DNA of 14,139 bases, from IMG/VR virus record IMGVR_UViG_2703718861_000003. One strand, 5' to 3'. Position numbers: made by a program. This document shows, piece after piece, positions 3,001 through 6,000 of this stretch. This DNA comes from a virus. Its lineage: Duplodnaviria; Heunggongvirae; Uroviricota; Caudoviricetes. Each line of letters starts with the position of its first letter. Position 1 is the first letter of the stretch.

Positions 3001-6000
3001 ACAAATTTTTATCCACGAGCGGGACTGCACTCCCTTTTCGTTGATGCAGGATGAACTTACTGCGATTTTTAATAGTTATCAAGGATACACTGTTCATAAA
3101 TACAGTATCTTTAACGAGGTAATACCCAAATTTAGGGTGTTGCTCAATTCCGTTACCGAGTTGCTAATTTGCAACTCGCTTTTTCGTACTTACTGATAGT
3201 GATCTCGACCTTCCCTTCCGGGATAACCGGTCCCCACTCCACCAGCATTCTTTTCACCTGGCTGTCGTCTTCCCACACCCCCGCGTGGGTCAGGGCGTCA
3301 AACAGCGCCTTGTTATAGTTGTCCAGATCGCGGATCCTGTTATCCGGAGGAAACAACACGATCTCCACTGAAGCAGGTGCCGACGTTGGTTTCGGCAGAC
3401 GACGTAACTGCTCAACTATTGCTGCACACGCCGCGCTCTGGAATTTTCGCCCCGCCGCGCTTATCAGGCTCTTACCAGCAAACGCCCCTTTGTTAGGGTG
3501 TCGCCAGTACGTGTTCACGCTGGGCGGAAAAGGCAGTATTAGCTTCATACTTTCAGGCCCCTCTCATGTAACCAGTGGGTTGCACGCAGCCTTGCGTTTT
3601 CCTCACCGGCAAGCAGTGCGCGGATAATCCCGACCGCCTCGCTGTCGTCGTCCTTCATCGCAGTATGAAGCGTTATCCCCCGGGCCACGCCACGCTTTAT
3701 CGTGATGACGCCTTTTTTCTCCAGTGCGCGAAGATGCTCCACCGCTGCATTCACCGAACGGTATCCCAGCATGGTTGCCACCTCCTGATTGGTTGGCGGG
3801 AAGCCACGTTCTTTCTGATAAGAAATCAGCATATCCAGCACCTGCTGCTGGCATTGAGTTAATGTCGTCATGCCGCCATCTCCCTGACCAGTTTTTCCGC
3901 CTGCTGGCGAGCCTGCGCCAGAAATGCCTCACCACATGCCTCAAGTTCATCGCGCCCGATGTAGCTGATTGCCGCTCCCTTCCAGGTCTTGTCGAAAACA
4001 GCAATAGCACCAGCGAAGAAAGCACCTGTTGGCACCTGCTTTTCGTCTTTCGGGATAAACCAGGCTGGCAGTTCAAAACCAATACGCCCGCGAATAAAAG
4101 CAATATGATCTGCATCTTCCGGCCACCACACTTCGCTGGTGGCCGCTTTGATCAGGAAAACATAGCGCCCGCCTTTATCACGCATGGCACTGGCATGCTT
4201 CATGATGTAACGCATGCCGGTGATGTATTGTCCCTCATGCTGACTGGCGCGGCTGTACGGGGGATTACCAAAGGCAGCACCTTTAAGCTCCGCAAGACGT
4301 TCTGACCAGTCATGTGCCAGCGCGTTGTCTTCCGCCGTGTAATACGCGGCACATTTGGCGTTATCACCGTCAGTAAACAGATCCAGAACAAACGGGCCAA
4401 ACAGGGTGTTAATTCCCCAGAAAATGTTGTCCGGCGTGCGCCACTGATCGCCCACTTCCTTCAGTTCATGGGCTGGTTTGTTCCGTAGTTCCACCAGCGC
4501 CTGGCAATATTTATTACTCATTAAGCCCCCACGTAATTCCCTGACAGATACCACTCATCACCCGCTACAGCGCGCTTTCTGCTTTTCCGTAAGCACCGCT
4601 CACGACGCGCCAGAAAATTGTTTCGTTCTGGCTGGGAGTGGCTTTCACGGAATGCCGCCATCCACACGGTTGCAGCACGACGGTATAAGCCCATGGACTC
4701 CAGTTCTTCCGCCTGGCGGGTCAGGCACAAAATCACCCGGGGATCGTTAGTGCCGACATAGAAATTGCGCACAGGTATGGTTTCAAGAACAGGTTGCAGT
4801 TTCTCCTCCTGCGATATCTCAGCCTGGTGTGGGAAATGTCTGCGTGTTTTCCATTCACAACAGTGAGCCACACGGCCACTCTGACGTAACTTGCTTGCTG
4901 ACTGCAGAACGCACTGTCGTGAGTAACCAGCAAAAGCATCCGCAATGTCACCTGAAGTACACCCCGGATGGGCTTCAATGAATTTCTGTACATCGTTCAT
5001 CAGACTCATGATCACCCCCTGAATCCTGTCGGGATCTGGCTGTAGTCCACGTTGTCGTAACTGGCTTTGAAGTACGGGTCCTCGCGTCTGGCTGCAGATA
5101 CCGCAGGAACTTCCCAGGATTCTTCGAAATGACGATCCGGACCAAAGAACGTGACAGCCTGTTTCACAAATTGTGTGCCGCTATTGCCCATCGCAGATAC
5201 CCAGCCCGCGTAGCGTTTCACACCTTCCAGCATGGTTTCGGGGTTTACCCCCTCGTTCAAACGGGCTTTCCAGGCTTTGAAGGCTGCTGATTTTGAATTG
5301 CCACCAGCACGTTTGGGATATTCCTGCCAGGCCTGTTCAAATTCCGGTGAATATTCCTGTCGGGCAGAACGCGCTGGCGCAGACGCGTCAGCGGATGCAT
5401 CAATAGTGTTTTTAGTCTCCGTTGTAATCTCTGTAGTAATCTCTGTATTTGTATCAACATTCGGCGTATCCCCTGTTCCGTTATGACGTCGGGGGGTGTT
5501 CCGTTTTAACGTAATAGCTGTATCGCTGATTGCATTATTGCTGTTACTTTCTGGCGAAACAGAAGAAGGTGTGGTGATGGCCGCAATTGCCTGTGGGTTG
5601 ATCCCGACAAACAAAATATTGCTGCATTTCACCCCATCGAGCATTTCCACCGTGCGTAAATCCAGAGTAATAAACCCTGCATCGCGCAGACGCTTCAGCG
5701 CATCTGCGGTTTCCCTTTTCCCGAAACCAAACTGCTCAGCAAACGCCTGGTAGCTTCTTTGCAGTTTGTCGCCCTGAAAACGCTTGCGATATCCCAGCAA
5801 CGCTCCGGTGTGCTCATCCCTGACCTCTGTCGGGCGGTACCAGTAAACGATCTCTGAAAGCAGAGCGATAGCCGTCGCATCCGGACGCCCACTGGGTAGT
5901 CGAATATATTTCCACCAGGTCGCAGGTGTAACATTGCCGGAAATATTAATTTGACCAATAGCCATAACTTCCGGTGTGGGGGCGTAACGGCTCATACAAC

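Follow-up and report, generated by a model that had tools for sequence, protein, structure and literature searches.

Prophage promoters repressed by the host SOS regulator LexA are well known, among them those of coliphage 186 tum, the Gifsy dinI-antirepressor operons, N15 antC, lambda pO and the endolysin genes of prophages in extraintestinal pathogenic Escherichia coli (ExPEC; PMC9621596). In Gifsy-1, -2 and -3 a LexA box is followed by dinI and an antirepressor gene (gfoA/gftA/gfhA; Lemire et al. 2011, PMC3121763). At the Gifsy-2 locus, replacing the segment that holds the box abolished induction by mitomycin, and the lexA3 allele blocks induction (PMC3121763). A LexA site has also been reported in the oop-pO region of lambda (PMC5869508, citing Lewis 1994). 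Here we describe a candidate LexA operator, SOS box 1, at 3088-3107 of a 14,139-nt stretch of Caudoviricetes DNA (IMG/VR record IMGVR_UViG_2703718861_000003; the whole stretch is referred to below as the window), where it lies between the genes rusA and kilA-N. Judged by its sequence and layout, box 1 appears to fit this class; what is new about it is kilA-N as cargo and its mosaic origin. We put at about even the chance that it is a functional E. coli-type LexA operator repressing a promoter for kilA-N, and possibly for the antiterminator gene Q. From the sequence, the kilA-N-to-Q block, or else a short antisense RNA next to it, is probably induced directly by DNA damage.

Results

A near-consensus SOS box in front of kilA-N

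The locus comprises:
3088-3107, no strand assigned: SOS box 1, LexA operator candidate, caCTGTtcataaatACAGta; the minus strand reads TACTGTATTTATGAACAGTG
2991-3152: rusA/kilA-N gap of 162 nt, which holds box 1
3153-3548, minus strand: rusA, RusA family of Pfam (E=6e-15)
2175-2990, minus strand: kilA-N, 271 aa, with a KilA-N domain at residues 10-114 (E=1e-15) and a C-terminal half without family

Box 1 agrees with the consensus TACTGTATATATATACAGTA at 16 of 20 positions, the four mismatches leaving its CTGT-N8-ACAG core exact, and its spacer is A/T-rich; the initial annotation, which had proposed a near-consensus SOS box here, was accurate in both sequence and coordinates. The site is non-coding. 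Both flanking genes are on the minus strand, and 97 nt separate the end of box 1 from the kilA-N ATG (2990), which is preceded by a GGAG ribosome-binding site. These values agree with the earlier estimates of a gap of about 160 nt and a distance of about 100 nt. That this is the only sizeable gap of the leftward gene array holds on the map of open reading frames (ORFs) and is less certain around ORF 6509-7660, which contains isrK and C4 RNAs and part of which may be non-coding.

The exact core is expected 0.17 times per window, in line with the earlier expectation of well under once per 14 kb, and was observed three times, a count of at least three being reached in none of 200 shuffles. For scoring, as had been suggested at the outset, we used a 20-nt LexA matrix made from 24 E. 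coli operators known from the literature, five of which were then verified, with training scores from 13.0 to 27.2 bits. Box 1 scores 21.7 bits, above the maxima of all 300 shuffled windows (median 8.9, highest 17.8). When the matrix was checked in E. coli MG1655, the recA, lexA1, lexA2, sulA and umuD operators were present exactly as entered in it and were the best matches at their own loci (19.3-27.2 bits, with the runner-up at no more than 9.4). The score of box 1 lies inside the range of the MG1655 operators of lexA (19.3 and 20.3), sulA (22.8) and recA (23.4 bits). Box 1 is beyond chance and, as a sequence, is as good as a bona fide LexA operator.

Several other candidates were set aside. 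The third core, at 7542, reaches 7 bits only on the LexA matrix and was dropped. Exact copies of the box in other, unrelated contigs were either coincidences within coding sequence (…EHTVFMNS…) or belonged to unrelated SOS promoters. A 36-codon upstream ORF (2988-3097, minus strand), whose ATG (3097-3095) lies inside box 1 and whose TGA overlaps the kilA-N ATG, was rejected as a separate gene because an 11-nt deletion in some variants joins it in frame with kilA-N.

Candidate promoter layout toward kilA-N

Two promoter-like pairs point toward kilA-N:
3102-3129, minus strand: candidate LexA-occluded kilA-N promoter, with -35 TTGGGT (3129-3124), N16 and -10 TACTGT (3107-3102), the latter being a half-site of box 1
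3054-3082, minus strand: second promoter-like pair, TTGATA (3082-3077)-N17-TAAGTT (3059-3054), with 8/12 consensus matches and the end of box 1 lying 5 nt upstream of its -35

The layout of the first pair matches that of known SOS promoters. Read directly from their sequences, MG1655 sulA and umuDC have TTGATC-N17-TACTGT(box) and the Gifsy-2 dinI-gftA SOS locus has TTGAAT-N17-TACTGT(box); the window variant AZ187 carries TTGAAT in place of TTGGGT. Where a -35 is followed by N16/17 and TACTGT(box), both the -10 hexamer and the start of transcription lie under LexA. The second pair is present in all variants, save that AZ187 has TTGATT.

Downstream, the kilA-N, orf171, DUF968 and Q genes are tightly packed, with intergenic gaps of 2-15 nt. 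Scanning positions 1-3200 for terminators gave five matches on the two strands together (three on the minus strand), where 3.3 +/- 1.9 were expected; at this chance level, no convincing minus-strand terminator was found between box 1 and Q.

Distribution, mosaic origin and variants

The gap with box 1 occurs in some relatives only, a subset of SfIV-like lambdoid prophages: phages SfIV and PhiR49_1 have it, as do 186 of the 5426 complete E. coli genomes and about 100 IMG/VR contigs. In most relatives rusA adjoins kilA-N directly. The distance is 17-20 nt, with no such gap, in SfII, mEp460, Salmonella 118970_sal3 and Morganella IME1369_02, while in Yersinia YeP3 a small annotated ORF occupies the junction and overlaps the kilA-N start. 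Box 1 belongs to a segment of distinct origin:
2748-3176, no strand assigned: mosaic segment of 430 bp, delimited by blastn breakpoints, with no nucleotide-level similarity in SfII or mEp460

Within it lie the first ~80 codons of kilA-N, its leader or 5' untranslated region (5'UTR), box 1, two hairpins and the last 8 rusA codons. When the N-terminal 85 residues of KilA-N were compared with phage records by tblastn, nothing was found between 100% and about 45% identity, and a scan of viral contigs with the KilA-N N-terminus returned 100%-identical copies only. A large protein database contained an 85%-identical kilA-N allele (P0003), present in contigs L202 and L203, where the order is LexA-domain gene, rusA, a 76-nt gap without the box, and kilA-N. 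The leader shared by these contigs and the window is confined to GGGAGTGCAGTCCCGCTCG (3016-3034) and the ribosome-binding site; on the minus strand, GGGAGTGCAGTCCCGCTCG forms a hairpin of 4-5 bp. The non-coding DNA particular to the lineage, about 140 bp (~3035-3176), carries box 1, has no counterpart in this closest diverged allele, and is at least 90% identical in all its copies.

Positions 3040-3200 exist in 12 variants, with too few variable sites for a meaningful footprint. Position 20 of box 1 varies between G and A, of which A brings a closer consensus match. The first 19 nt are identical in 102 IMG/VR copies, all of them fetched by exact match to that very 19-mer. Among variants retrieved by similarity, box 1 is unchanged but for position 20 and for contig L164, in which CTGT has become CTCT, either a natural operator-down variant or a sequencing error.

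A two-hairpin element on the plus strand

Beside box 1 lies a structured element on the plus strand:
3118-3186, plus strand: terminator-like two-hairpin element, with hairpin 1 at 3118-3144 and hairpin 2 at 3157-3178, followed by CTTTTTCG (3179-3186)

The element is antisense to the end of rusA, hairpin 2 falling within the last eight rusA codons. The stem of hairpin 2 has 8 bp, five of them G-C pairs, and is followed by the T run. Folding of 3112-3190 as RNA gave -27.7 kcal/mol (z -5.2) on the plus strand compared with -20.7 (z -3.0) on the minus strand, and three G-U pairs of hairpin 1 on the plus strand are mismatches on the minus strand. In AZ187 two C-to-T changes leave hairpin 1 paired, as G-U and on the plus strand only, yet the same changes also turn the minus-strand -35 into TTGAAT. 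Because all genes to the left are on the minus strand, the terminator can stop only a short transcript begun within about 190 nt. No Rfam match at E <= 1 was found in 2900-3300, and the 12 near-identical hairpin variants are too alike for covariation.

A second SOS box within the repressor gene

The best LexA-matrix match in the window is stronger than box 1 and lies inside the repressor gene:
8565-9257, plus strand: cI, helix-turn-helix (HTH) and Peptidase_S24 domains
8774-8793, no strand assigned: SOS box 2, TACTGTATGTAAAAACAGTA, 25.7 bits, in the cI linker codons between HTH and S24

Box 2 is one base off the umuDC operator. A -35-like TTTACC (8751-8756) stands N17 upstream of it, giving a -35-N17-TACTGT layout on the cI strand. 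We aligned cI homologues from Shigella, mEp460, Salmonella 118970_sal3, Klebsiella Kp4872-1 (71%), Citrobacter phiNP (68%) and Fels-1 (52%), the percentages being amino-acid identity to the window cI. All of them have a box of 22.7-27.2 bits in the same place within the gene (nt 210 or 213), even though the residues that it encodes vary (TVCKNS, TVYKNS, TVCKHS, TVHINS, TVYKSS, TVNKYS) and the surrounding linker is unalignable. In comparisons of distant cI pairs the box has a nucleotide identity of 0.81 and its CTGT/ACAG core one of 0.94, compared with 0.49 in the 17 nt upstream and 0.30 in the 24 nt downstream. From the -35-like hexamer 17 nt upstream (TTTACC/TTTACA/TTTTCA) to the box there are no indels; these begin right after the box. 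The cI-linker box is a genuine DNA-level footprint, conserved in DNA and not in protein. It could serve as an internal, SOS-inducible promoter that drives a C-terminal fragment of cI, or as a LexA roadblock within the gene. The box is dispensable for induction, given that mitomycin still induces Fels-1 in a lexA3 background (PMC3121763). A minus-strand promoter at the same place (TTCACC-N17-AATACT) was rejected, as indels alter its spacing among the homologues.

As far as we found, no LexA box conserved inside a repressor gene across enterobacterial genera has been described before. Because LexA boxes recur in this phage group, the prior that box 1 is used is raised.

Strong SOS boxes were also seen in mEp460 (L012:11865-11884, 22.7 bits) and Morganella IME1369_02 (L014:11020-11039, 21.1 bits). 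Both are in codons 4-10 of a DNA methyltransferase gene after Q and encode T-V-x-x-N-S, as does the cI-linker box.

A phage protein with a LexA DNA-binding domain

Two genes upstream of box 1 lies a gene for a truncated LexA-like protein:
3545-3871, minus strand: LexA N-terminal-domain gene, 108 aa, without S24 protease domain

The match to PF01726 (E=3e-19) covers the whole domain, the TIGR00498 lexA profile covers positions 1-91, and the alignment with E. coli LexA residues 2-70 is gapless, with a nearly identical recognition helix. Of the LexA base-contact residues S39, N41, A42, E44 and E45 (PMC13416735), four out of five are kept, E44 being replaced by V. A single-sequence model of low confidence (predicted local distance difference test, pLDDT, 58.6) shows a winged helix-turn-helix and two C-terminal helices; this AlphaFold model was too poor for a fold search. 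The 108-aa protein may well bind SOS boxes.

Across otherwise mosaic phages the protein is 95-99% identical, with diverged homologues in phages of Klebsiella, Edwardsiella, Hafnia and Proteus. A scan of genome contigs returned near-identical Shigella copies and true lexA genes only, and our literature search found no publication on an enterobacterial phage LexA-domain protein. The nearest precedent is gp6 of GIL01, a truncated LexA homologue that activates the late promoter P3, which host LexA represses (PMC6182141).

The gene stands upstream of box 1 in 82 of the 89 contigs with enough flank, the other seven having no such gene within 1.2 kb. Five of the seven show a clean excision that joins rusA to dam; in L048 the gene is further upstream, and in L063 the match stops inside rusA. 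Most phages that carry the gene are without box 1. Since box 1 is intact in the five contigs with the gene precisely deleted, host LexA appears to be the simpler candidate binder, with the phage protein a possible second player. The conserved cI box and the LexA-domain gene are more unusual than box 1 itself; the initial annotation had overlooked both, as well as the plus-strand terminator.

Gene neighbourhood

The window is the early part of a lambdoid prophage belonging to the SfV/SfII/SfIV/mEp460/cdtI/Stx2c group. Along the minus strand, cro is followed by a CII-like (CP76) gene, an Ash/Rha gene that contains isrK and C4 RNAs, the replication genes, PerC, Dam, the LexA-domain gene, RusA, the gap, KilA-N, orf171, DUF968 and finally Q. 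The genes after kilA-N are:
1644-2159, minus strand: orf171, 171 aa, no Pfam family, PHROG 2539
645-1634, minus strand: DUF968/HNH (Pfam)
235-642, minus strand: Q antiterminator, Phage_antitermQ (Pfam)

Pfam thus bears out the earlier reading of KilA-N, a hypothetical gene, DUF968 and Q in succession on one strand. The hypothetical gene, orf171, is inserted between kilA-N and DUF968 and does not occur in SfIV, SfII or mEp460. Box 1 lies about 5.4 kb from cI/cro, between rusA and kilA-N and outside the immunity region. The S24 region of cI carries SASA-GNG, GDSM and VKRL motifs.

At 7112-7300 on the minus strand, Rfam matches to C4 antisense RNA (82 bits) and isrK (62 bits) fall inside ORF 6509-7660, which has Ash and Rha domains. 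This looks like an isrK-C4-regulator module of the Gifsy/P1 type, and the true start of the ORF may be further downstream. Positions 13774-13906 are a run of N (masked or unidentified bases).

Discussion

As regards LexA occupancy, the activity and direction of the promoter and the reach of transcription, we infer the following course. In the lysogen, dimers of host LexA would hold box 1 and block the weak minus-strand sigma-70 promoter TTGGGT-N16-TACTGT. On DNA damage, active RecA would bring about LexA self-cleavage and the promoter would fire, independently of the early promoter controlled by cI. The transcript would cover kilA-N and might read through into orf171, DUF968 and Q. Such an input is probably accessory, giving earlier or extra expression, and not the induction switch, because cI has an S24 self-cleavage domain; the analogy is with its 52%-identical homologue FsoR of Fels-1, which is cleaved, Fels-1 being induced in lexA3 cells without need for LexA cleavage (PMC3121763).

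A LexA-controlled promoter for kilA-N, as the initial annotation had it, is favoured by the operator quality, the non-coding site and the layout shared with sulA/umuDC and Gifsy-2, and a number of observations pull the other way. TTGGGT-N16-TACTGT has 6/12 consensus matches, its -35 agreeing in TTG only, and a standard promoter scan gave nothing above threshold on it. The better promoter-like pair lies downstream of the box and would place box 1 at about -60 to -41, an odd position for repression and a normal one for an activator, while the plus-strand terminator fits transcription in the opposite direction. Most relatives are without box 1, as is the closest diverged kilA-N allele, and the box has no phylogenetic footprint, since its copies are at least 90% identical and the 85%-identical allele lacks it. 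In the literature and in record annotations, searched also with the box sequences, we found no description of box 1 and no expression or binding records.

Two parts of the earlier interpretation found no support or were weakened. Domain and profile searches with the kilA-N protein found the KilA-N domain only, with no ANT, DinI or Tum homology; its PHROG label is the generic 'transcriptional regulator', and the description antirepressor-like rests on a loose association of KilA-N with such functions. Nor is the analogy with the 186 Tum and Gifsy antirepressor systems likely to carry over, as the window cI, with HTH and Peptidase_S24, is unlike the non-cleavable repressors of 186 and Gifsy; given also the cleavage of FsoR and the LexA-independent induction of Fels-1, a logic in which LexA cleavage is the only induction route is unlikely here. 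It also should be considered how far an SOS transcript could run. Levels of damage that spare most CI-type repressor already inactivate LexA, so that SOS-driven Q would be costly or risky for a prophage at mild damage. Reach to Q, possible in principle, is therefore doubtful.

Other accounts of the same data have to be set beside the LexA-repressed kilA-N promoter, which we rank first. Ranked second, and in our view an outside chance, is that box 1 controls a rightward, oop-like antisense RNA of about 70-110 nt that, after DNA damage, tunes or processes the early-right transcript. Beginning at box 1 or slightly ahead of it, this RNA would form the hairpin at 3118-3144, stop at 3157-3186 and overlap the 3' end of rusA; a leftward promoter may coexist, and the two accounts are not mutually exclusive. 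The canonical plus-strand terminator, usable only by a transcript with a nearby start, the stronger plus-strand fold and the retention of hairpin 1 in AZ187 all suit it, as does the similar layout of lambda oop (77 nt, two hairpins at -28.5 kcal/mol, antisense to the cII 3' end, with a LexA-like site of 15.3 bits overlapping the start), for which the LexA site in oop-pO has been reported (PMC5869508). However, no convincing plus-strand -35/-10 was seen, the best being TTGATG-N17-GATTTT and TTATCA-N19-TACAGT, and another candidate -10, TATCTT, becomes TATCTC in AZ187, where the two hairpin changes also yield the better minus-strand -35. Terminator-like matches arise about once per kb by chance, variants L107 and L004 each break one hairpin 2 pair on the plus strand, and an Rfam family match for such an RNA is lacking. 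Somewhat less probable still is that box 1 is an inert passenger that arrived with the mosaic segment, either as an operator that has lost its function or as a palindrome arisen by chance. The absence of the box from most relatives and the diverged allele, relatives in which kilA-N is simply within the early-right operon, the contig with CTCT and the weak promoter matches around the box would all follow. On the other hand, 21.7 bits is far above chance, LexA is abundant and binds sites of such quality wherever they are present, and in variants retrieved by similarity the box is constant save for L164 and a G/A change that improves the consensus.

The phage's own LexA-domain protein enters two further accounts. 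That this product of the early-right operon is the main ligand of box 1, activating TTGATA-N17-TAAGTT in the manner of GIL01 gp6 (PMC6182141) or re-repressing once host LexA is gone, we hold to be the least probable of all. Its gapless alignment with LexA, the retained contact residues, the lexA profile match and the conservation in otherwise mosaic phages speak for it, as does the activator-type position of box 1 just upstream of the TTGATA -35. Against this, box 1 is intact where the gene is precisely deleted (L063 is also without the gene, its match ending inside rusA), box 1 is lacking in most of the phages that carry the gene, and the cI box occurs in Salmonella 118970_sal3, where no such gene is annotated between dam and rusA; the protein is without the LexA dimerisation domain, and its model is of low confidence. 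A broader scheme, which we regard as improbable to about the same degree as the inert passenger, is a LexA-centred timer. Host LexA would sit on box 1 and on the cI box, damage would fire both promoters, and the uncleavable 108-aa mimic would then re-occupy the boxes and possibly those of the host SOS regulon, giving a pulse of kilA-N (and Q) and a shutdown of host SOS in lytic growth; the cI box might also drive a repressor fragment without DNA-binding domain.

If LexA controls kilA-N up to Q, widespread prophages of E. coli and Shigella would receive a damage signal parallel to repressor cleavage. Relatives of the window phage include Stx2-converting and serotype-converting phages, and the speed of late-gene switch-on and the damage level at which it occurs could shift, for example after antibiotic exposure. 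The wider pattern, a cI box together with a LexA-domain gene without protease, may matter more than box 1 alone.

Comparison with known systems

The Gifsy prophages offer one of the closest arrangements. There, as here, the LexA box is located outside the immunity region, coming after the replication genes and a palindrome and upstream of Q; the boxes are similar in sequence (Gifsy TACTGTGTTTATATACAGTG compared with TACTGTATTTATGAACAGTG for box 1), and Gifsy-2 has -35-N17-TACTGT where the window has N16. The differences are in what surrounds the box. The cargo here is kilA-N, in Gifsy dinI with a small antirepressor; the palindromes of Gifsy, with their T runs, act as terminators in the sense direction, while the T run of the window falls on the other strand; and the 5'UTR would be about 95 nt compared with about 30 nt. 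Gifsy repressors are uncleaved and LexA cleavage is required, whereas the repressor here has an S24 domain. With p95-tum of coliphage 186 (and likewise Fels-2, and antC of N15) the locus would share a promoter repressed by host LexA that drives a phage regulatory gene, which for the window is a prediction. Tum, however, is a DinI-related antirepressor and the sole induction route in 186, and no homology links KilA-N to it.

Lambda pO/oop resembles the locus in having a LexA-type site beside a short, two-hairpin, terminator-ended unit, which in each case lies antisense to the 3' end of a gene of the early-right operon and shortly ahead of the next gene. The two show no similarity in sequence; at 15.3 bits the lambda site scores lower, and it overlaps both the oop start and a clear promoter (CATAAT), whereas no clear plus-strand promoter is seen here, and the target is rusA instead of cII. 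GIL01, the precedent for a phage LexA homologue, is a Gram-positive tectivirus without CI repressor; its gp6 ends just after the wing, whereas the 108-aa protein has a 40-residue tail, and box 1 also occurs without the 108-aa gene. The chromosomal sulA and umuDC promoters of E. coli have a better -35 (TTGATC) and short leaders, and they stand outside the prophage context of box 1. In operator quality they are like box 1, and in both the TACTGT half-site follows the -35 by 16-17 nt.

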